64,000 nt of DNA from Escherichia coli (lineage in GTDB: Bacteria > Pseudomonadota > Gammaproteobacteria > Enterobacterales > Enterobacteriaceae). A program made the position numbers and the translations under genes. The stretch lies in the NCBI RefSeq assembly GCF_044324785.1, contig NZ_CP172127.1. One strand, 5' to 3'. Under the pieces are notes generated by a model. It saw only the letters and a program-made list of their open reading frames with translations, searched no databases and was not told the origin of the DNA. Every line of letters begins with the position of its first letter. Within the stretch, counting starts at the first letter, position 1. Below are positions 2,352-25,462 of this stretch, piece after piece.

Positions 2352-3503
2352 ATGAATGTGGTTGATTTATACTCAGGGGTAGGTGGTTTAAGCTTGGGAG
2401 CATCACGGGCAGGCTTTAACTTGGTTGGTGCCGTTGAGTTGGATAAGCATGCAATATTTTCCCATGCTCTTAATTTCCCAAATTCAACACATTTACATAA
2501 AGATGTTAGCAAACTTTCTGCTCATGATATTCTAACAGCTTGTAATGTTAGTAATATTGATTGTGTCATCGGTGGACCACCTTGTCAGGGATTTAGTACA
2601 ATTGGTAAAGGGATGGCTAATGACGTCAGAAATGAATTGTATATTCATTTTTTTAGGTTGGTGAGCGAGTTATCACCTGTTTGTTTCTTGGCAGAGAATG
2701 TTCCTGGGATAATGAATGAAAAATATGATGCAGTTAGAGAAAAAGCATTCTCATTAGTAAAAGACCGATATGTAATATTGAGCCCAATAAAAGTGAATGC
2801 GTCTAATTATGGAGCTCCTACAACTAGAACTAGGATTTTTTTTATCGGATTCAAAAAGGAATTAGCTAATTGTTTAAAAGAATCTGATTTCTTTCCTGTG
2901 CAAGATATTGAGCAAACCTTAGTTAAAGATGCTTTATACGGTATTCCTCGTGTTATAAGAAAAGAATGGCAGCAAGAGGAACAAGGCTGGCGTGAAGTTA
3001 AGATGGATAGGCAAGGATATTTTTTTGATAGACTTTGGAGTAATGTTCCGAATAATGTTGGTGATCCGGAATCTTTAGAAAAATTAAAAAAAGGGTTGGT
3101 CTCCGGTTTCTTGGGAACAATACATACAGATGAGGTTATTAATAGATATAAAAAACTCTCTTTTGGCGAAACTGATAAAATTTCACGATCTCAGAGGTTA
3201 AATCCAAATGGTTTCTGTCCGACGCTAAGGGCTGGAACTGGCAGCGATAAGGGCAGTTATCAAGCAGTTAGGCCGATCCATCCAACGCAGGCTAGAGTTA
3301 TTACTCCACGTGAGGCTGCTCGATTACAAGGTTTTCCTGATTGGTTTAGGTTTCACCCTACTAAGTGGCATAGTTTCAGGCAAATCGGTAATAGCGTTAG
3401 CCCATTAGTAGCTGAAGCTATGCTATTACCGTTATATAAATTATGTCAGTTTTCTAAAGAAGAACTTTCGAATACCACGGAATTACTTTGTAATACTCAA
3501 TAA
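2352..3503 (+). CDS. DNA (cytosine-5)-methyltransferase (383 aa)
   Basis: Canonical C5-MTase motifs in order: motif I DLYSGVGG, motif IV GGPPCQGFS, motif VI FLAENVPG, motif VIII-like TTRTRIFFIG, motif X IGNSVSP. AT-rich relative to flanking phage genes. Starts 51 bp after the gpA stop. Confidence 0.85.
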   Translation: MNVVDLYSGVGGLSLGASRAGFNLVGAVELDKHAIFSHALNFPNSTHLHKDVSKLSAHDILTACNVSNIDCVIGGPPCQGFSTIGKGMANDVRNELYIHFFRLVSELSPVCFLAENVPGIMNEKYDAVREKAFSLVKDRYVILSPIKVNASNYGAPTTRTRIFFIGFKKELANCLKESDFFPVQDIEQTLVKDALYGIPRVIRKEWQQEEQGWREVKMDRQGYFFDRLWSNVPNNVGDPESLEKLKKGLVSGFLGTIHTDEVINRYKKLSFGETDKISRSQRLNPNGFCPTLRAGTGSDKGSYQAVRPIHPTQARVITPREAARLQGFPDWFRFHPTKWHSFRQIGNSVSPLVAEAMLLPLYKLCQFSKEELSNTTELLCNTQ

Positions 3504-3915
3504 AGTTTTTAAGGTTACTATTAGCCTCGGCTTCATCATCTCCAATGTAAAAGCCGAGGTCGTTGGTAATTTCTTCATGGTCTTTTGTAGGAAGTCGTTC
3601 CTCAATAAAGATTCTCTCACGTAAAGACATCGTGGGAACACTAATGTTTTTGACGGTGCCCCAGTCTCCAGAATAAAAGGGCCAAAAATTAATTCGAGAA
3701 TTTTGAAGGAAGCTATCTAATTGCATATCACTGTTTTCGAGAACAATGGCAGTAAAGGTAAGCATTTGCTGACCATCTTTGTAAATAAAATTACATAAAG
3801 GATGGATCATTATATCTGGTCTACCTGTTAATCCAATACTTATGGCACGTTGAGCTGCTTTTATTAAAAGGTGTGGGTACCTTTTAAAAGTGACATCATC
3901 AACAGTTAGATTCAC
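3454..3915 (-). CDS. Hypothetical protein (153 aa), third gene of GHKL-ATPase operon
   Basis: GTG start overlaps the stop of the upstream 177-aa ORF by 4 nt (GTGA). No recognisable motif. 3' end overlaps the MTase 3' end convergently by 50 bp. Confidence 0.55.
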   Translation of the reverse strand: MNLTVDDVTFKRYPHLLIKAAQRAISIGLTGRPDIMIHPLCNFIYKDGQQMLTFTAIVLENSDMQLDSFLQNSRINFWPFYSGDWGTVKNISVPTMSLRERIFIEERLPTKDHEEITNDLGFYIGDDEAEANSNLKNFIEYYKVIPWYSKVLL

Positions 3916-4445
3916 TGGGCAATAATCTTGAGTAAGTAAAGATTGTATTTTTTTAATCGAAAACGCCTAGGGTCTCTTTCTTGAAAATCTCTTCCTAAAG
4001 TTTCAGGAGTTGCATTTAAAGTTATTTTAAATATATCTTTTGGCTTTAACTTACTTACCAATTGAGCAATGTCATTCATTTGCTCATATATTTGGCTTGG
4101 TATGGCATAGTCAAGCCAAATTAGAGAAGGTGCAGCGAAGTCGCTTTGAGTAATAAATTCACTGCTACTTAAAGGTTCTTCTCCTAAATCAATACATGAT
4201 ATAGGTTTGTTAAATTTTTGTCGTTTATGAACGTTAGCATCTACCTCTAGAGAGATCATGTTATTGATTTTTAAAGCATTATGCAGTTGTTTGAAGTCTT
4301 CTAGAAAAGGGCCACCAAACCCGATATAAACATAATCGGATATGTTTACATAGTTGTTGAGTTTTCTGAGCAACTCAATGAATAGATTTCTTTCGACAGC
4401 TTTGTGTTGTCGAAGATGATAAGGAATACTTCCCCCAGTACTCAT
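3912..4445 (-). CDS. Hypothetical protein (177 aa), second gene of GHKL-ATPase operon
   Basis: ATG overlaps the stop of the 488-aa ORF by 4 nt (ATGA). Weak glycine-rich stretch YVYIGFGGPF could be a nucleotide- or SAM-binding loop, but no confident family assignment. Confidence 0.55.
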   Translation of the reverse strand: MSTGGSIPYHLRQHKAVERNLFIELLRKLNNYVNISDYVYIGFGGPFLEDFKQLHNALKINNMISLEVDANVHKRQKFNKPISCIDLGEEPLSSSEFITQSDFAAPSLIWLDYAIPSQIYEQMNDIAQLVSKLKPKDIFKITLNATPETLGRDFQERDPRRFRLKKYNLYLLKIIAQ

Positions 4446-5908
4446 TTTTTTGCCCTCTCTAAAAAATCTTCAAAGCAATAATTACCAATTTCTGTCGGAG
4501 GAACAGAATCATCATCGAAAATGAAAGTGGCAACAGTTTTTATCTCACTCAATCTTCTACTAAATTTTATTTGCTTTAAAGGGTCTGTTTCTTTAGGTAT
4601 TGGCAATGTTGGTTTGAAACTATTCCCACCAATGGATCTATGCACCCGAGACCATTTATCTTCAGGTACTATGCTATCTAGTTTGTCGTTTGTAAGAGGA
4701 ATTGTTTTAGATGTGGAACTAAACATTTGCTGGCGTTCTGGAGAGTTACTTTTCCATCTGTTAGTAAAATCTGTAAATATTTTCAAGCCTTCACGCATGA
4801 AATCTTTAGTAGCCAAATAGATATCAGAATTACCATCAATGCCTCTCTTGGTAGTAGTAATAGGTAATTTTTCAGCTTCATTAGATGTAAAAATAGCTAC
4901 GCCTGCAATTCCAACAAATTGTGTGTGATATTGTGGAACTCCTGCTTCACCCCATCCGGTAAGACGTGTCTTGTCCGCATGAACAACAACACGATCATTG
5001 CAGATAATAGTCCATCCGGCTTTCTCGGAAGTGTTACGTCCAGTAAGGAATGAATTTTCCTCATCTTCTGTCACAAAATCTCTATAGAATCCAACTGCGA
5101 TCTTTATTGAAACTCCATTAGTTTCACCTCTGTAAAAATAAGGCGTGATACCACCTTTTTTCGCTGACACAAGAGCTTCGGTATCGATAATTAATGATGT
5201 CAGATTTGGCTTGACTTCTATATCATTAATATAGACCTTGAAACCTTTATTAAGAATTAGGCTATAATGGTTTGAAACAGAATTGATTAATTTTTGTTGA
5301 AAATCACGATCAACTTTGAAATGGTTTTTTACATCGTCTCTGAGATCGTTAACTATAATTTTTACGCCCGTTGTTTTTAAATCGACATTACCACGTTCGA
5401 GATCTAGTTTCCAGTTTTTATCATTGGATAACCATTCTGGAGAAATTGTAACTTTAAATTCCTCGTCTTTTGTTTTACTTAATACTTGCGATGAAGTGCC
5501 CAACTTAAAAATAGCTCGCTTCATACCTATCCCATAAACACCAATGGTTGGGATATTATCTATGTCTCTTTCATTTGGTCTTCCCATTCGGAAAGCATAG
5601 CTTGTTGCTAAGCTTCCCGAAATTCCGCCACAATTATCTTCAATTGTAAAACCATCTTCATTAAAATTTATTTTTGAGTAAAAACCGTGGTATTTATTTT
5701 CTTCGTTTATTTCTTCATTCGATGATGAAATGGAACGAAGAGCGCCATCAAGACAGTTGTCTAATAAGTCAAGAATAGCATCTTGGAGTTCGATATCCCT
5801 GGTTAACATTTCTACAAAGAAACGTTTTGCAGGAAAAGCTTCGATGATATCGTTTGCCATAGTTATTTTAGTTCCATCTGTGTGATTACTTATAGATATG
5901 TTTACCAT
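4442..5908 (-). CDS. GHKL-superfamily (MutL/GyrB/MORC-like Bergerat fold) ATPase (488 aa)
   Basis: N-box AILDLLDNCLDGA, G1 box IEDNCGGISG and G2 box IGVYGIGMKRA occur in the expected order and spacing in the N-terminal ~130 residues. C-terminal ~350 residues unassigned. First gene of a 3-gene coupled operon. Confidence 0.7.
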   Translation of the reverse strand: MVNISISNHTDGTKITMANDIIEAFPAKRFFVEMLTRDIELQDAILDLLDNCLDGALRSISSSNEEINEENKYHGFYSKINFNEDGFTIEDNCGGISGSLATSYAFRMGRPNERDIDNIPTIGVYGIGMKRAIFKLGTSSQVLSKTKDEEFKVTISPEWLSNDKNWKLDLERGNVDLKTTGVKIIVNDLRDDVKNHFKVDRDFQQKLINSVSNHYSLILNKGFKVYINDIEVKPNLTSLIIDTEALVSAKKGGITPYFYRGETNGVSIKIAVGFYRDFVTEDEENSFLTGRNTSEKAGWTIICNDRVVVHADKTRLTGWGEAGVPQYHTQFVGIAGVAIFTSNEAEKLPITTTKRGIDGNSDIYLATKDFMREGLKIFTDFTNRWKSNSPERQQMFSSTSKTIPLTNDKLDSIVPEDKWSRVHRSIGGNSFKPTLPIPKETDPLKQIKFSRRLSEIKTVATFIFDDDSVPPTEIGNYCFEDFLERAKK

Positions 5909-20206: not shown

Positions 20207-22525
20207 ATGAGCACAAAATTCAGAACCGTTATCACCACTGCCGGTGCAGCAAAGCTGGCAGCGGCAACCGCACCGGGAGGGCGGAAGGTCAACATTACCA
20301 CGATGGCCGTCGGGGATGGCGGTGGTAAATTGCCTGTCCCGGATGCCGGACAGACCGGGCTTATCCACGAAGTCTGGCGACATGCGCTGAACAAAATCAG
20401 CCAGGACAAACGAAACAGTAATTATATTATCGCAGAGCTGGTTATTCCGCCGGAGGTGGGCGGTTTCTGGATGCGTGAGCTTGGCCTGTACGATGATGCG
20501 GGAACGTTAATTGCTGTGGCGAACATGGCCGAAAGTTATAAGCCAGCTCTCGCCGAAGGCTCAGGGCGTTCGCAGACCTGTCGCATGGTCATCATCGTCA
20601 GCAGTGTGGCCTCAGTGGAGCTGACCATTGACACCACAACAGTGATGGCGACGCAGGATTACGTTGATGACAAAATTGCAGAGCACGAACAGTCACGACG
20701 TCACCCGGACGCCTCGCTGACCGCCAAAGGTTTTACTCAGTTAAGCAGTGCGACCAACAGCACGTCTGAAACACTGGCCGCAACGCCGAAAGCGGTAAAG
20801 GCCGCGTATGACCTTGCTAACGGGAAATATACTGCGCAGGATGCCACCACAGCGCGAAAAGGTCTTGTCCAGCTCAGTAGTGCCACCAACAGCACGTCTG
20901 AAACGCTCGCTGCAACACCAAAAGCGGTAAAAGCAGCATATGACCTGGCTAACGGGAAATATACCGCACAGGACGCCACCACCGCGCGAAAAGGCCTTGT
21001 CCAGCTAAGTAGCGTCACCAACAGCGATTCTGAAACGCTTGCGGCAACGCCAAAGGCGGTTAAGACAGCGTATGACCTTGCTAACGGGAAATACACTGCA
21101 CAGGATGCCACCACAGCGCGAAAAGGGCTTGTCCAGCTCAGTAGCGCCACCAACAGTGATTCTGAAACCCTCGCGGCAACGCCAAAAGCAGTGAAGTCTG
21201 CCTATGACAATGCTGAAAAACGTCTTCAGAAAGATCAGAACGGTGCGGATATTCCGGGAAAGGATACCTTCACGAAAAATATCGGTGCCTGTCGTGCTTA
21301 TAGCGGCGCTTTGAGCACTGAAGCCGGAAACTGGACAACCGCTCAGTTTATTGAATGGCTGGATTCCCGTGGTGCATTTAATCATCCGTACTGGATGTGC
21401 AAAGGCTCCTGGTCATATGCAAATAACAAAATCATTACGGATACCGGATGTGGTGATATCCACCTGGCTGGTTGTGTCGTCGAGGTCATGGGAACTAAAT
21501 CTGCAATCACTATCCGAGTGACCACGCCGACAACATCAAGCGGTGGCGGTACAACCAGCGCGCAATTCACTTACATTAATCATGGGGACGGCTACTCCCC
21601 CGGCTGGCGTCGTGACTGGAATCGTCAGGGCGACGCAATGACCGGAACGATTAATCAGGATGGCGGAAGCCAGAATGCCTATATGTCTACGGCCTTATGT
21701 TCAGGCACCAGAGGCGGCAAAAAATATCTCAGAAAGTTTCGTGGTGGAGAAGGAGACACTATCTGGCATGAAACAGTACAGGGCGGGGTAGTTCGCTGGG
21801 CGACTGGTAATACTGATGCTCAGGAAGAATTATCACTCAGCTCCGCTTATGGTCTCCGTTCAAGAGGTGAGATTACATCAAGCAGTGCTAATGGTCTGCG
21901 CATTGCTTATGGCAATTATGGATTCTTTATCAGGAATGATGGCAGCAGCACTTATTTTATGTTGACTAAATCAGGTGACAGATTAGGCACTTATAATAAT
22001 TTAAGACCACTGATTATAAATGATGCCACGGGTGCTGTATCAATGGGGCATGGCCTGAGTGTTACTGGTGATATTGCCTCAAGTACCAAAGTACGTGCCG
22101 GTAGCGGGAAAAAATTCACGGTCAGCAGCAGTAATACATCCACGAAGGAAGCCGCATTCAATTTGTGGGGAAACTCAAGTCGTCCGGTGGTGGCTGAATT
22201 AGGTGATGATGCAGGCTGGCATTTTTACAGTCAGAGAAATACAGATAACAGCATCACTTTTGCTGTTAACGGGCAGGTATCACCATCTAACTATAGTAAT
22301 TTTGATTCACGCTATGTCCGGGATATCCGGCTTGGTGGTGCTGCCACATACAAACCTGCGAACAATGGCATGACATGGACACATCAGGCACCGTCCGGGT
22401 GTGTATATTCCGGCATTATTGTTCAGGATACCGGCTCAAACTCTGCCGATAACATTGGTGGCGTATATTACAGACCGGTGCAGAAATACATTAACGGGAC
22501 ATGGTATAACGTGGCACAGGTATAA
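20207..22525 (+). CDS. H: Tail fibre protein gpH (772 aa) with internal tandem repeats and divergent distal half
   Basis: Conserved N-terminus MSTKFRTVITTAGAAKLAAA, then a repeat block, then an AT-richer C-terminal half. Confidence 0.85.
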   Translation: MSTKFRTVITTAGAAKLAAATAPGGRKVNITTMAVGDGGGKLPVPDAGQTGLIHEVWRHALNKISQDKRNSNYIIAELVIPPEVGGFWMRELGLYDDAGTLIAVANMAESYKPALAEGSGRSQTCRMVIIVSSVASVELTIDTTTVMATQDYVDDKIAEHEQSRRHPDASLTAKGFTQLSSATNSTSETLAATPKAVKAAYDLANGKYTAQDATTARKGLVQLSSATNSTSETLAATPKAVKAAYDLANGKYTAQDATTARKGLVQLSSVTNSDSETLAATPKAVKTAYDLANGKYTAQDATTARKGLVQLSSATNSDSETLAATPKAVKSAYDNAEKRLQKDQNGADIPGKDTFTKNIGACRAYSGALSTEAGNWTTAQFIEWLDSRGAFNHPYWMCKGSWSYANNKIITDTGCGDIHLAGCVVEVMGTKSAITIRVTTPTTSSGGGTTSAQFTYINHGDGYSPGWRRDWNRQGDAMTGTINQDGGSQNAYMSTALCSGTRGGKKYLRKFRGGEGDTIWHETVQGGVVRWATGNTDAQEELSLSSAYGLRSRGEITSSSANGLRIAYGNYGFFIRNDGSSTYFMLTKSGDRLGTYNNLRPLIINDATGAVSMGHGLSVTGDIASSTKVRAGSGKKFTVSSSNTSTKEAAFNLWGNSSRPVVAELGDDAGWHFYSQRNTDNSITFAVNGQVSPSNYSNFDSRYVRDIRLGGAATYKPANNGMTWTHQAPSGCVYSGIIVQDTGSNSADNIGGVYYRPVQKYINGTWYNVAQV
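20726..21225 (+). repeat. About 3.8 tandem copies of a 132-bp (44-aa) unit inside H
   Basis: Peptide unit QLSSATNS(T/D)SETLAATPKAVKAAYDLANGKYTAQDATTARKGLV recurs with Q codons at 20738, 20870, 21002 and 21134. Confidence 0.9.
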
Positions 22526-22528
22526 TTT

Positions 22529-23056
22529 ATGCAGCATTTGATAAATATAACCGCGGGTAATCCAAAAACGGTTGAACAATATCAATTGACAAAGGACTTT
22601 GATGTTGTCTGGTTTTTTACAGAAGATGGTAAGAACTGGTACGAAGAACAAAAGTATTTTGCTGATGACACGATAAAAATAGCGTACGACAAGGATAATA
22701 TTATCCGCTATGTGGAAAAAGATGTGACAGCTATCAGACCAGATGGATTAAGTGTGGTTGAAGTGGCGGATATTACTGCTAACCGACGGGCGGACATTTC
22801 AGGGAACTGGATGTTTAAGGACGGCAAAGTGATTAAACGCATTTATACGGCAGAGGAATTGCAGCAGCAGGCAGAAAACCGGAAAGCCAGACTTCTTGCA
22901 GATGCTGAATCCGTGATTTTGCCACTGGAGCGCGCTGTCAGGCTGAACATGGCAACAGATGAGGAGCGTAGCCGACTGGAAGCATGGGAACGCTACAGTG
23001 TTCTGGTCAGCCGTGTGGATCCTGCAAATCCTGAATGGCCGGAAATGCCGCAATAA
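22529..23056 (+). CDS. G: Tail fibre assembly chaperone gpG (175 aa)
   Basis: Immediately downstream of H. AT-rich like the distal part of H. Confidence 0.8.
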
Positions 23057-23381
23057 GTGATATGATCTCTTGTGTTAGTTAACATAGCTATAGTACAGAG
23101 TAAGGCCTAATCTGACAGTCCGCTCTGTGCTAGGAGCGGACATTATCAACATCATGCTATGTTAATGTATAAAGTGAAGATAAATTGATATAATAAGGCC
23201 ACCATGAATATTTCAGAACCTTGTCAAAAGGTTTGCACATACTCTAGTCTTGCAATGTGTAGTTGATAGTTCCACTGAGGAGGTTCTTCGACATTCTTTA
23301 TAAAAATGTACATTTTCATCAATAATAAGAGGTAAAAGGGCTTTAATGGTTTTTTGTGGATGTTATTTCTACTCATAAATT

Positions 23382-23410
23382 TTGAGATAAGTATTGAGTT
23401 GAGATAAAAT
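23382..23410 (+). promoter_or_regulatory. Putative sigma70 promoter for the 175-aa cargo gene
   Basis: -35 TTGAGA at 23382..23387, 17-bp spacer, -10 TAAAAT at 23405..23410. AAGGA Shine-Dalgarno about 8 nt before the ATG at 23446. Confidence 0.4.
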
Positions 23411-23445
23411 TAAACTCGTTAAATTCACCTTTAAAAGGATAAAGC

Positions 23446-23973
23446 ATGGACTGGAAAGATCTTGCATCAACCGCTGTGTATACAGGTATGACTGATGAAA
23501 ATGAAAGCATATGGGAACGTGTTGATGGGGTTGACGTTGCCTTCATAGGTGCCTTTCTTACTGCGCACTTGAGCCTTGAAAAGTATATTACTGATTATCT
23601 TGGATTAAGATATCCTTCGTTAGCTTGGGGTGATGCAAAACTCACATTTTCACAAAAAATAGCTTTAATACAACATGAGCCTGCAACCCCCCCTTATGAT
23701 GAAATATATTTAAGAATAAAAGACTTTAACAGCATAAGAAATAAAATCAGTCATCAATTGAATTATCAGATTACGGATAAAGAAAAAAGTAAGTTTGTGG
23801 ACTTCTACATGAAGATTACTAAAGCCAGTAAAACTAAACCAAATATTGATATTGATAACATGGCAGATTTGTTGGATTTTTTCGTATCGATGACAAAATC
23901 CTATTTTGCTAGTGCTATTTCTTGTTATCACTATAATAAAAAGGTTGCAGGTAAAAGTAATAAAATTGATTAA
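23446..23973 (+). CDS. Hypothetical cargo protein (175 aa) with Rx4H HEPN-like motif
   Basis: Very AT-rich gene in the G-to-FI gap, where P2 carries Z/fun. Motif IRNKISH (R-x4-H) in the middle of the protein. Good Shine-Dalgarno. Confidence 0.55.
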   Translation: MDWKDLASTAVYTGMTDENESIWERVDGVDVAFIGAFLTAHLSLEKYITDYLGLRYPSLAWGDAKLTFSQKIALIQHEPATPPYDEIYLRIKDFNSIRNKISHQLNYQITDKEKSKFVDFYMKITKASKTKPNIDIDNMADLLDFFVSMTKSYFASAISCYHYNKKVAGKSNKID

Positions 23974-24271
23974 TAAAACTGGACTTAGGGATAATTAATA
24001 TATAGACGTTCTATCATTTTTAGAGTGTGCGGCAGCTCCATACATTCATGCGGATGTCAGCACCTCGCTCAAAGCAGACAGTCAGATTTGATAGCGTTTG
24101 GACTATGTAAATAGTCAGTTGGAAAATGAGTGAGTACAAATCAGGACAGGCGGGCGAATTGCCCGCCTTTTCTTTATCTGTTGTTTCATCCACTGACCAG
24201 CCAGGTCAAATAGCGTCTCATGCTCTGCCCAACAGAAAATAGTTGCACCCATTAACCACGGAGTTAAACGG

Positions 24272-25462
24272 ATGAGTGACTATCATCACGGCGTGCAGGT
24301 GCTGGAGATTAACGACGGCACCCGCGTCATTTCCACCGTATCCACGGCCATTGTCGGCATGGTCTGCACGGCCAGCGATGCGGATGCGGAAACCTTCCCC
24401 CTCAATAAACCGGTGCTGATTACCAATGTGCAGAGCGCAATTGCAAAGGCTGGTAAAAAAGGCACGCTGGCGGCATCGTTGCAGGCCATCGCCGACCAGT
24501 CAAAACCGGTCACCGTTGTCGTGCGTGTGGAAGACGGCACCGGCGACGACGAGGAAACGAAACTCGCGCAGACCGTTTCCAATATCATCGGCACCACCGA
24601 CGAAAACGGTCAGTACACCGGACTGAAAGCCCTGCTGGCGGCGGAGTCGGTAACCGGTGTTAAACCGCGTATTCTCGGCGTGCCGGGACTGGACACCAAA
24701 GAGGTGGCTGTTGCACTGGCATCAGTCTGTCAGAAGCTGCGCGCTTTCGGGTATATCAGCGCATGGGGCTGTAAAACTATTTCCGAGGTGAAAGCCTACC
24801 GCCAGAATTTCAGCCAGCGTGAGTTGATGGTCATCTGGCCGGATTTCCTCGCATGGGATACGGTCACCAGTACCACCGCCACCGCGTATGCCACCGCCCG
24901 TGCGCTGGGTCTGCGCGCTAAAATCGACCAGGAGCAGGGCTGGCATAAAACACTGTCCAACGTTGGGGTGAACGGTGTTACCGGCATCAGCGCCTCTGTA
25001 TTCTGGGATTTGCAGGAGTCCGGCACCGATGCTGACCTGCTTAATGAGTCAGGCGTCACTACGCTGATTCGCCGCGACGGTTTCCGCTTCTGGGGTAACC
25101 GTACCTGCTCTGATGATCCGCTGTTCCTCTTTGAAAACTACACCCGCACCGCGCAGGTGCTGGCCGACACGATGGCTGAGGCGCACATGTGGGCGGTGGA
25201 CAAGCCCATCACCGCAACGCTGATTCGCGACATCGTTGACGGCATCAATGCCAAATTCCGTGAGCTGAAAACAAACGGCTATATCGTGGATGCGACCTGC
25301 TGGTTCAGCGAAGAATCCAACGATGCGGAAACCCTCAAGGCCGGAAAACTGTATATCGACTACGACTATACACCGGTGCCTCCTCTCGAAAACCTGACCC
25401 TGCGCCAGCGTATTACCGATAAATACCTGGCAAATCTGGTCACCTCGGTTAACAGCAATTAA
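24272..25462 (+). CDS. FI: Tail sheath protein gpFI (396 aa)
   Basis: Size and position. Confidence 0.9.
   Translation: MSDYHHGVQVLEINDGTRVISTVSTAIVGMVCTASDADAETFPLNKPVLITNVQSAIAKAGKKGTLAASLQAIADQSKPVTVVVRVEDGTGDDEETKLAQTVSNIIGTTDENGQYTGLKALLAAESVTGVKPRILGVPGLDTKEVAVALASVCQKLRAFGYISAWGCKTISEVKAYRQNFSQRELMVIWPDFLAWDTVTSTTATAYATARALGLRAKIDQEQGWHKTLSNVGVNGVTGISASVFWDLQESGTDADLLNESGVTTLIRRDGFRFWGNRTCSDDPLFLFENYTRTAQVLADTMAEAHMWAVDKPITATLIRDIVDGINAKFRELKTNGYIVDATCWFSEESNDAETLKAGKLYIDYDYTPVPPLENLTLRQRITDKYLANLVTSVNSN

Follow-up and report, generated by a model that had tools for sequence, protein, structure and literature searches.

A stand-alone HEPN-domain protein as candidate abortive-infection cargo in the Z/fun hotspot of a P2-like prophage

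We propose that a 175-aa protein encoded by a P2-like prophage of Escherichia coli is a stand-alone HEPN RNase carried as accessory abortive-infection cargo in the second defence hotspot of P2, a reading to which we assign a probability of roughly 0.55. The gene (positions 23446-23973, plus strand) lies in what we call the window, i.e., the whole stretch of 64,000 nucleotides that was analysed, and its product corresponds to RefSeq WP_021517187.1, a 'hypothetical protein'. The ORF list places it between the P2 tail fibre assembly gene G (22529-23056, plus strand) and the tail sheath gene FI (24272-25462, plus strand), which form the left and right boundaries of the hotspot, and an identical E. 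coli locus (EC77) carries the same gene annotations in RefSeq. Defence genes are enriched at the Z/fun site (PMC9519451).

The GC content falls to 0.30-0.37 over approximately 23150-24050, as against 0.50-0.59 in the flanks, and the AT-rich insert with a single 175-aa gene that a sequence-only reading had recognized at the Z/fun position is indeed present. That reading had, however, counted the entire 1.2 kb as insert. While its AT-rich part stands, the cargo-specific part spans only about 0.9 kb: the left inverted repeat of the P2 Z region (23057-23155) and positions 24054-24271, comprising the right repeat, a terminator and the pF region, are common to other P2-like phages. The 35-nt core of the left repeat (23109-23143), which includes the hairpin GTCCGCT...AGCGGAC, is 80% complementary to the core of the right repeat (24054-24088). 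This pair aligns with the annotated repeats of P2-EC30 and P2-EC67 as well as with P2 itself. Thus, located between G and FI and bounded by the Z-region inverted repeats, the gene is cargo of the P2 Z/fun hotspot. We rejected the idea that the flanking repeats are a dispersed element of the ERIC/REP type: the right repeat, carried by roughly 1080 E. coli genomes, occurs once per genome and only in P2-like prophages.

The predicted structure of the protein, an AlphaFold model with a pLDDT of 92.6 and a pTM of 0.84, shows a HEPN-type fold with its all-alpha helical bundle; the hypothesis drawn from the sequence thus withstood the structure prediction that had been named as a check on it. Its top solved match in Foldseek, with a probability of 1.00 over about 163 columns, is HepS (STM14_3211 of the Gifsy-1 prophage of Salmonella Typhimurium; PDB 9oij/9oik; Sargen et al., Nature 2026, PMC13043305), and the best solved matches are HEPN proteins, namely MtlR/YggD, HepS and HEPN toxins. 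The AFDB relatives are labelled RiboL-PSP-HEPN, DUF4145, Cthe_2314-like HEPN, AbiU2-like HEPN or mannitol repressor, and members of the family give weak Pfam matches, to HEPN families only. The 175-aa protein itself finds no match in NCBIfam, no significant one in Pfam (DUF6548 only, at 0.023) and no family in PADLOC-DB v2 even at E-values up to 10, the PD-T4, PD-T7 and PD-lambda systems known from P2 hotspots included; its sole match in the family libraries is the unannotated PHROG 5483 (2.7e-60).

The sequence-only reading had singled out IRNKISH (residues 97-103, codons 23734-23754), which contains R98 and H103, as an Rx4-6H motif of HEPN RNases, conceding that it might be coincidental. By itself, such a motif is not significant: bare Rx4-6H occurs at 0.73 per 175 aa in the long ORFs of the window and is present in 33 of 55 ORFs; RNx3H occurs there at 0.027 per 175 aa. 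In the family alignment, R98 is kept in every one of 125 homologues, most of which share 20-30% identity with the query, and N99, H103, H41 and E45 are kept in 124 each. The hallmarks of HEPN domains include a polar residue (N/D/H) directly after the arginine of Rx4-6H and a conserved acidic residue in helix 1 (PMC3710099). Here, homologue conservation and the alignments to HepS identify the former as N99, within the Rx4H catalytic motif R98-N99-K-I-S-H103 (codons 23737-23754, plus strand), and the second acidic residue of helix 1 as E45, which aligns with E48 of HepS; the usual Ex3[KR] form is absent and the helix-1 motif instead reads H41-x3-E45 (codons 23566-23580, plus strand). Taken together, conservation, profile and fold agree that IRNKISH is a real HEPN active-site motif rather than a coincidence. 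One match, in 16 stretches, to a 4271-aa protein (P0026) that lacks RNx3H was kept out of the homologue alignment (A2); we suspect that it reflects K/N/I-rich composition.

These residues also speak to the possibility that the protein is a non-catalytic HEPN of the MtlR/YggD kind, binding a host protein or RNA and altering host physiology, as in lysogenic conversion, without cleavage. Loss of the Rx4-6H motif marks the non-catalytic HEPN families, and the MtlR proteins, which reside in mannitol operons, often lack it (PMC3710099); in contrast, the window family keeps it strictly, R98, N99 and H103 being essentially invariant across 125 diverged homologues, and sits at phage accessory sites. 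The solved MtlR/YggD structures (PDB 3brj, 3c8g and 6kcr), from the DUF4145-like HEPN assemblage (Anantharaman et al. 2013), are only 12-17% identical to the window protein, and mtl or other PTS genes were absent from every context examined, which sets it apart from the MtlR family. Hence, we regard a non-catalytic role as quite improbable. The HEPN-MNT toxins (SO_3166, PDB 5yep; 7ae2) differ in another respect: they have a nucleotidyltransferase partner, whereas the window protein has none, and an HEPN-MNT antitoxin gene was found neither in the window nor beside the close homologues.

HepS, the nearest characterized relative, is a partner-less, constitutively expressed and non-toxic tetramer that remains inactive until the siphovirus tail-tip (J) peptide binds and opens it; the activated enzyme then cleaves specific tRNA anticodon loops, resulting in abortive infection (PMC13043305). 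Its close homologues are 35-50% identical and PSI-BLAST recovers 393 homologues in all (PMC13043305). When the window protein is searched against the PDB as a single sequence with phmmer, HepS is reached at an E-value of 0.19 over 34 residues; the profile of the 125-sequence family reaches it at 9.7e-8, and its catalytic mutant HepS-H105A at 2.5e-5. Likewise, hhalign aligns the two at 95.7% (E 9e-9) over 86 core columns with about 20% identity. A HepS query, rebuilt from a frameshifted genomic copy and with an uncertain C-terminus, falls into phrog_5712 with phrog_5483 as its second match (1e-8); the window protein weakly matches phrog_5712, and the two PHROGs are each other's next-best match. 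A HepS fragment retrieved only three truncated Salmonella entries from a large protein database, and HepS was not found in the phage collection searched.

The two proteins thus have in common a single-gene, prophage-borne and stand-alone organization with a product of about 175-190 aa and no conserved partner; an R-N-x3-H core in which R100, N101 and H105 of HepS correspond to R98, N99 and H103 of the window protein; the helix-1 glutamate; and a hydrophobic residue after the catalytic His+1 position (I107 in HepS and L105 in the window protein). They differ in belonging to distinct PHROGs, 5712 as against 5483; in H41, which is invariant in the window family while the aligned position of HepS holds an asparagine; and in K71 of HepS, which aligns with a leucine. 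Their settings differ too, HepS occupying the replication/antirepressor site of a lambdoid siphovirus and the window gene the Z/fun site of a P2-like myovirus. Further, the profile match is confined to the core, and the window protein falls short of belonging to the HepS clade over its full length: homology could not be demonstrated for its first 35 and last 50 residues. The terminal regions of HepS contribute to trigger sensing; therefore, the activation mechanism and the target of the window protein may differ from those of HepS. By these sequence comparisons, the window family is a sister family of HepS and not a member of it. A tentative extension of this, which we consider possible though doubtful, is that PHROG 5483 represents an independent branch of solo HEPN sensors, whose own H41-x3-E45 motif and terminal modules might serve another class of trigger than the siphovirus tail tip of HepS, and another RNA; candidates for the trigger would then include components of T5-like phages, of myoviruses or of satellites.

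By position, the closest comparison is with Fun(Z), the original occupant of the hotspot, which lies between G and FI in P2 and is flanked by the same inverted repeats. It is non-essential lysogenic-conversion cargo that blocks T5; however, it measures 528 aa, is read from the opposite strand and has no sequence relationship to the window protein. It therefore offers no guide to phage specificity, and the analogy by which T5 had been suggested as a challenge phage has no basis. From its description, another prophage-encoded HEPN RNase resembles the window protein in functional theme: it is non-specific, is switched on by a structural protein of the invading phage and is regarded in the HepS paper as an entirely different system from HepS (PMC13043305).

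The genomic contexts of the homologues point to mobility between accessory sites. Close homologues (58-88% identical) occur in seven different contexts with no neighbour in common, and five of these are accessory sites of phages or prophages. One lies next to AbiGi at the Z position of a second P2-like phage; others (L012 and L026) are inserted between gpA and the portal gene, at P2 hotspot #1, with a HicB-like gene adjoining that of L026. A 68%-identical homologue adjoins lysis genes, a lysozyme gene among them, in a tail-tip-bearing phage contig, and copies in the Serratia rubidaea chromosome have two different left flanks. A search for related loci with a second homologue alignment (A1) found only nine viral contigs. 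As the insert contains no other ORF of at least 60 aa and, besides the HEPN gene, the only ORFs of at least 50 aa between G and FI are two antisense ones of 50 and 57 aa, the proposal of a one-gene module holds for the window and its close relatives. In the wider family, the solo arrangement does not hold throughout: an NTP-transferase or a PIN protein accompanies certain distant homologues, the NTP_transf_2 neighbour being restricted to a distant clade (P0046).

The gene does not travel entirely alone. A 3' untranslated region (23974-24142, plus strand), which includes the right inverted repeat, adjoins it in the Serratia chromosome and in hotspot #1 of L026 too, and folds better than shuffled sequences (z -2.8); from 24054 onward it is common to all P2-like Z regions. 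It is followed by an intrinsic-terminator-like hairpin with a T run (24148-24168, plus strand), detected by a terminator scan with nine pairs, seven of them G-C, which immediately precedes the region of the late promoter pF and is also found in P2. The promoter and the ORF, together with some 180 nt on the 3' side that include the right Z repeat, seem to move as a mini-cassette, which occurs in both P2 hotspots and at chromosomal sites; this distribution hints at repeat-directed recombination as a means of shuffling defence cargo in P2-like phages.

The insert is found in 48 of 5426 complete E. coli genomes, where it is 99-100% conserved, and in a single isolated Peduovirus record, the partial genome vB_EcoM-569R9, among 50,697 phage records; the gene is carried by only about 5% of the P2-like prophages of E. 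coli. These frequencies mark it as dispensable cargo. It is nonetheless under purifying selection (dN/dS 0.10-0.17), and its reading frame stays open, free of frameshifts, in homologues of different genera that are 58-98% identical. These observations, together with a conserved ribosome-binding site and the near-identity of the insert among its 48 E. coli carriers, tell against the gene being a passenger that is neutral or in decay and currently functionless, a view favoured only by the absence of annotation or experimental data and one that we find very hard to credit.

The signals upstream of the gene are of unequal quality. The Shine-Dalgarno proposed by the sequence-only reading is borne out: AAGGA (23435-23439, plus strand), 6 nt before the ATG as read from the sequence, sits in TTAAAAGGAT, 10 consecutive columns that are invariant across three aligned copies of the cassette. 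The proposed sigma70 promoter TTGAGA-17-TAAAAT (23382-23410, plus strand) is likewise present and matches the consensus at 10 of 12 positions, but the AT-rich region is not enriched in such sites, with 6 promoter-like hits where shuffled sequences give 5.2 +/- 2.2. Homologous cassettes do not preserve the -35 hexamer of this site; a second TTGAGA (23399-23404) is the one retained in other copies, as seen in alignment with those of Serratia and L026. The promoter call for the 23382-23410 site is accordingly weak. Upstream conservation between the copies extends over only about 70 nt, i.e., the promoter and RBS, and these elements are kept in non-phage settings such as the Serratia chromosome.

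This architecture bears on whether the protein might instead be the toxin of an addiction-type cassette, with a small RNA or peptide in the insert acting as antidote and with stabilization of the cassette or the prophage, instead of phage sensing, as its main effect. The short upstream conservation speaks against such an element. The insert has no tandem repeats, no Rfam family at the gathering score and no conserved small ORF, and the conserved 3' region is, from 24054 onward, mostly common to P2 Z cassettes whatever their cargo, so that it cannot be a cognate antidote. The 390-nt leader was considered as the site of an antitoxin or non-coding RNA and rejected: it shows no repeats and no Rfam match at threshold, its ORFs do not exceed 57 aa and are mostly antisense, and most of the leader is missing from the Serratia and L026 copies. 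HepS needs no antitoxin, and we consider an addiction cassette decidedly unlikely for the window protein. Further, because HepS does no harm to cells that lack its trigger (PMC13043305), a lack of toxicity on induction of the window gene would be no refutation of the function proposed here.

Another alternative is that the RNase benefits the phage itself, in lytic growth or against other mobile elements, and does not protect the host; it might act through shut-off of host or competitor RNA, counter-defence or interference with the satellite P4. The gene shares the orientation of the late tail operons, and no terminator-like site lies between G and the ORF, the only one being the hairpin after it; late read-through is therefore possible, and expression in the lytic cycle might serve the phage. 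The homologue that adjoins lysis genes is in keeping with this. Against it, the gene has promoter-like elements and an RBS of its own that persist in the Serratia chromosome, it is dispensable cargo at the frequencies given above, and it co-localizes with AbiGi and HicAB-type genes in defence hotspots. On balance, we deem a lytic role unlikely.

Returning to abortive-infection cargo as our preferred reading, homology and location together suggest that the gene functions as an exclusion module and is probably one more prophage-borne abortive-infection gene. Briefly, we propose the following mechanism, inferred from the comparisons above as regards RNase activity and its target RNA, auto-inhibition in an oligomer, the phage product as activator and the effect against phages. 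The lysogen would express the protein from the promoter inside the cassette. The product would form a homo-oligomer with composite R98/N99/H103 active sites held inactive, so that no antitoxin would be needed; a metal-independent endoribonuclease site composed by two protomers is characteristic of the HEPN superfamily. A component of an infecting, unrelated phage might then switch the protein on, and the active form would cleave cellular RNA, with tRNA anticodon loops, by analogy to HepS, being our best guess. Translation would stop and the infection abort, thereby protecting the lysogenic population along with its prophage.

Against this backdrop, the analysis yields a function prediction for a 'hypothetical' protein of about 1% of complete E. 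coli genomes that is missing from PADLOC-DB v2, NCBIfam and Pfam. The single-protein HEPN abortive-infection class typified by HepS would thereby be extended to a second family and to P2-like myoviruses, and, as the carrier phage has no lambda-type tail tip, the logic by which self is told from non-self must differ from that of HepS. With its 175 aa, the protein offers a compact system in which to ask what holds a HEPN RNase without a partner in check and what activates it. Finally, P2 defence hotspot #2, less studied than hotspot #1, gains another entry in its catalogue.

A run of P2-like prophage structural genes, embedded in E. coli chromosomal DNA, lies in the window's first ~31 kb. Within it, a stretch of 1215 nt separates the tail fibre assembly gene G (22529-23056), which follows the tail fibre gene H (20207-22525), from the sheath gene FI (24272-25462), beyond which lie the genes for the tube (FII) and the tape measure; the RefSeq annotation of the 100% identical E. 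coli EC77 locus agrees with this order. As the sequence-only reading had proposed, the stretch is an AT-rich insert (GC 0.30-0.37 against 0.50-0.59 in both flanks) with one 175-aa gene, at 23446-23973 on the plus strand; it is the sole substantial ORF between G and FI, where the others are at most 57 aa long and mostly antisense. The 1.2 kb taken there as cargo shrinks, however, to a cargo-specific part of only ~0.9 kb, since the sequence beginning at 24054 is matched in other P2-like phages. The proposed promoter, TTGAGA-17-TAAAAT at 23382-23410, is present, though the number of such sites in this AT-rich DNA is indistinguishable from background (6 against 5.2 ± 2.2 in shuffles), as is a Shine-Dalgarno-like AAGGA 6 nt before the ATG. 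An intrinsic-terminator-like hairpin at 24148-24168, also present in P2, lies 3' of the gene and 5' of the conserved pF region. The 390-nt leader holds a 20-codon ORF, MNISEPCQKVCTYSSLAMCS, at 23204-23266, with AAGG 7 nt upstream and a perfect TATAAT (23189-23194) shortly before it; this part of the leader is missing from the cassette copies in Serratia and in a metagenomic P2-like contig (L026), and hence the ORF is probably not functionally tied to the larger gene. The translation of gene H shows four near-identical tandem copies of a ~44-aa segment, ...KG(F/L)(T/V)QLSSATNSTSETLAATPKAVKAAYDLANGKYTAQDATTA....

The protein carries IRNKISH at residues 97-103, with the Rx4H motif. The earlier caution that this might be coincidental holds for the motif alone, since the window's long ORFs contain 0.73 bare Rx4-6H matches per 175 aa (33 of 55 ORFs have at least one) and 0.027 of the stricter RNx3H; it fails given the conservation of R98, N99 and H103 in 125 sequences. 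As neither the motif alone nor the promoter-like site stands above chance, the case rests on comparative evidence. A word-indexed search recovered 23 close relatives (58-98% identity), all without a protein name, from Escherichia, Citrobacter, Enterobacter, Serratia, Yersinia, Pectobacterium, Ewingella and metagenomes, while an exhaustive search of cluster representatives yielded 211 homologue clusters at E <= 1e-3, most of them 150-210 aa long and 25-40% identical over the matched stretches, with RN[KR]xxH at the equivalent position in almost all. Two long cluster representatives, P0026 (4271 aa) and P0080 (638 aa), match query residues ~65-126 in 16 and 7 separate stretches, respectively; a motif scan found no RNx3H in either, and we suspect that the similarity is compositional (K/N/I-rich) rather than reflecting HEPN arrays.

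Across the 125 aligned sequences, most of which share 20-30% identity with the query, R98 never varies; N99, H103, H41 and E45 are retained in 124 sequences apiece, and G35, L38, L42, F68, K71 and N95 in at least 90%. According to Anantharaman et al. (2013, PMC3710099), catalytic HEPN domains are marked by a polar residue after the arginine and a conserved acidic one in core helix 1, and, judged from its sequences, the family displays exactly these hallmarks. The near-perfect conservation of the catalytic triad contradicts a non-catalytic role of the kind played by MtlR. The dN/dS ratio, computed only between copies with unsaturated synonymous changes, is 0.10-0.17, indicating a real protein under purifying selection; this value and an ORF that stays intact across genera contradict the idea that the gene is a functionless remnant.

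Searches of PADLOC, NCBIfam and Pfam returned no significant match to the protein, and PHROGs places it in the unannotated phrog_5483 (2.7e-60); single family members match Pfam weakly, and only HEPN families. AlphaFold2, run from the alignment, predicts with confidence (pLDDT 92.6, pTM 0.84) an all-helical structure bearing a small hairpin at the N terminus, for which the top solved Foldseek match is HepS, the solo HEPN abortive-infection protein of the Salmonella Gifsy-1 prophage (probability 0.99-1.00, ~163 columns, TM ~0.45-0.5). Its AFDB structural neighbors are labeled RiboL-PSP-HEPN, DUF4145, Cthe_2314-like HEPN, AbiU2-like HEPN and mannitol repressor; one UniProt entry with the first label, an automatic one, is 81% identical to the query. 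The 125-sequence profile matches HepS (9oij_A, E 9.7e-8; its catalytic mutant H105A, 2.5e-5) and, weakly, Csm6 HEPN domains. Against a reconstructed HepS, hhalign gives 95.7% probability (E 9e-9, 86 columns, 20% identity), pairing R98/N99/H103 with HepS R100/N101/H105 and E45 with E48. HepS itself falls in phrog_5712 (1e-112), with phrog_5483 as its next match (1e-8), and the window protein matches phrog_5712 weakly, so that at the sequence level the two are reciprocally related. The HEPN-type protein suspected from the motif is thus borne out by the AlphaFold2 model, Foldseek and the HepS profile match, and the assignment is solid.

HepS, the sole characterized relative, is a partner-less, constitutively expressed prophage protein, non-toxic on over-expression, whose tetramer occludes the R100/H105 sites until direct binding of a siphovirus tail-tip peptide opens it to cut tRNA-Thr and a few other anticodon loops, leading to abortive infection (Sargen et al., PMC13043305). 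Demonstrated for the window protein are the gene itself, its fold and conserved motif, the homology to HepS, its solo and mobile character and the selection acting on it. Since it shares the core and catalytic residues with HepS, likewise lacks a partner and is also carried as prophage cargo, we propose a HepS-like logic, from which its RNase activity, auto-inhibition, trigger, target and phenotype are inferred by analogy: the lysogen would produce a resting oligomer, to be activated by a product of the invading phage; it would then cleave RNA, with tRNA as the best guess, and the resulting translation arrest would protect the lysogenic population. No alignment with HepS is obtained for the N-terminal ~35 and C-terminal ~50 residues, and the gene is carried by a myovirus, which lacks a lambda-type tail tip; hence, the trigger probably differs. 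Absent toxicity on induction would not count against this hypothesis, as HepS behaves that way. T5, favored earlier as a target by analogy with fun, loses its privilege, because P2 Fun(Z) is a 528-aa protein on the opposite strand, unrelated to the window protein. In one Salmonella Typhimurium assembly (GCA_900457195.1), a frameshift breaks hepS into two ORFs of 66 and 115 aa (L017, 2783-3348), reflecting either an inactivated defense gene in that strain or an assembly error.

Of 5426 complete E. coli genomes, 48 carry the gene at the Z/fun site, a documented reservoir of anti-phage genes (PMC9519451); they make up ~4.5% of the 1083 with the P2 right repeat (49 of which also carry the 3' part of the cassette), and the sole carrier among 50,697 phage records is the isolated phage vB_EcoM-569R9. 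Close homologues also follow the tail fibre gene in another P2-like phage, adjoining an AbiGi-family gene (L004/L028); occupy the other P2 hotspot, which separates replication gene A from the portal gene, in Ewingella (L012) and in L026, there with a HicB-like gene nearby; adjoin a lysozyme gene in a phage contig that also encodes a large tail-tip protein (L014); and reside in the Serratia rubidaea chromosome. These close-homologue contexts have no neighbor gene in common, which, along with the lack of another substantial ORF in the insert, upholds the one-gene module envisaged earlier. The A-portal hotspot is also documented, by Rousset et al., as a reservoir of anti-phage genes. In the window it (2352-5908) holds a plus-strand type II C5 cytosine methyltransferase (PADLOC MTase_II, 8e-95) and three minus-strand ORFs of 153, 177 and 488 aa without a PADLOC match, and may be a restriction-modification or Vsr-type module. 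Some distant homologues are solo, in chromosomes or islands, and others, 30-37% identical, stand in two-gene arrangements (L030 5001-6438, L031 244-1681, L032 467-2103, L029 4145-7199): in one clade, an NTP_transf_2 protein of 266 aa is encoded 44 nt downstream, in HEPN-MNT-like fashion; in another, a 344-aa PIN_12 protein overlaps upstream; and a third homologue has a DprA-like gene as its neighbor within an integrase/AlpA island. These mixed contexts imply a domain family reused as a module in several conflict-system architectures; the solo status is that of the enterobacterial clade.

The insert is bounded by the inverted repeats previously annotated for the P2-like prophage 'Z region' (cores 23109-23143 and 24054-24088, 35 nt, 80% complementary), which surround fun(Z) in P2 and flank cargo in P2-EC30/EC67; corresponding positions are 4623-4644 in L010/L011, 4620-4641 in L026, and ~826-860 and 2944-2965 in L019. 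Three parts make up the conserved cassette unit: ~70 nt of upstream DNA with the RBS and the TTGAGA at 23399, the ORF itself, and a 3' stretch of ~180 nt that takes in the right repeat; this 3' stretch accompanies the gene in the Serratia rubidaea chromosome and in the A-portal hotspot of L026. Two S. rubidaea genomes share the gene and right flank and differ in their left flanks; the point at which they part is precisely a hairpin that resembles the left repeat. Among 5426 E. coli genomes, 1083 carry the right repeat, in one copy each, and it is therefore not a dispersed repeat. These sequence comparisons suggest that cargo cassettes are exchanged by a repeat-directed mechanism; that such shuffling should go together with a different class of trigger from that of HepS is, as a joint reading, rather doubtful.

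The 3' region of the cassette folds better than shuffles (z -2.8), a small opening for the view that the protein is the toxin of an addiction-type cassette with a hidden RNA or peptide antidote. This is nevertheless unlikely: no repeats, Rfam families or conserved small ORFs were found in the insert, upstream conservation is confined to the promoter and RBS, and the conserved 3' region is mostly common to all Z-region cassettes. Two Hfq-binding sRNAs of Salmonella, STnc150 (22 bits, E 0.033) and isrF, give weak full-length matches, below the Rfam threshold, at 23929-24178, a span that covers the cassette 3' UTR, right repeat and terminator; these sRNAs may themselves be transcripts of the equivalent P2-like prophage region; a hairpin at ~24108-24127 shows compensatory changes in three sequences. 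A role in service of the phage, through late read-through expression, counter-defense or satellite interference, fits poorly with a gene that is rare in phages and also found in a bacterial chromosome.

It is already known that HEPN RNases act as abortive-infection effectors and that prophage hotspots carry them, and the solo-HEPN architecture has been described too (HepS, 2026). What is new is the assignment of the unannotated and uncatalogued PHROG 5483 as a sister of HepS, an H-x3-E element specific to this family, and the family's presence in both P2 hotspots. While no surprise to a specialist, the gene is a good and cheap candidate for experiment.
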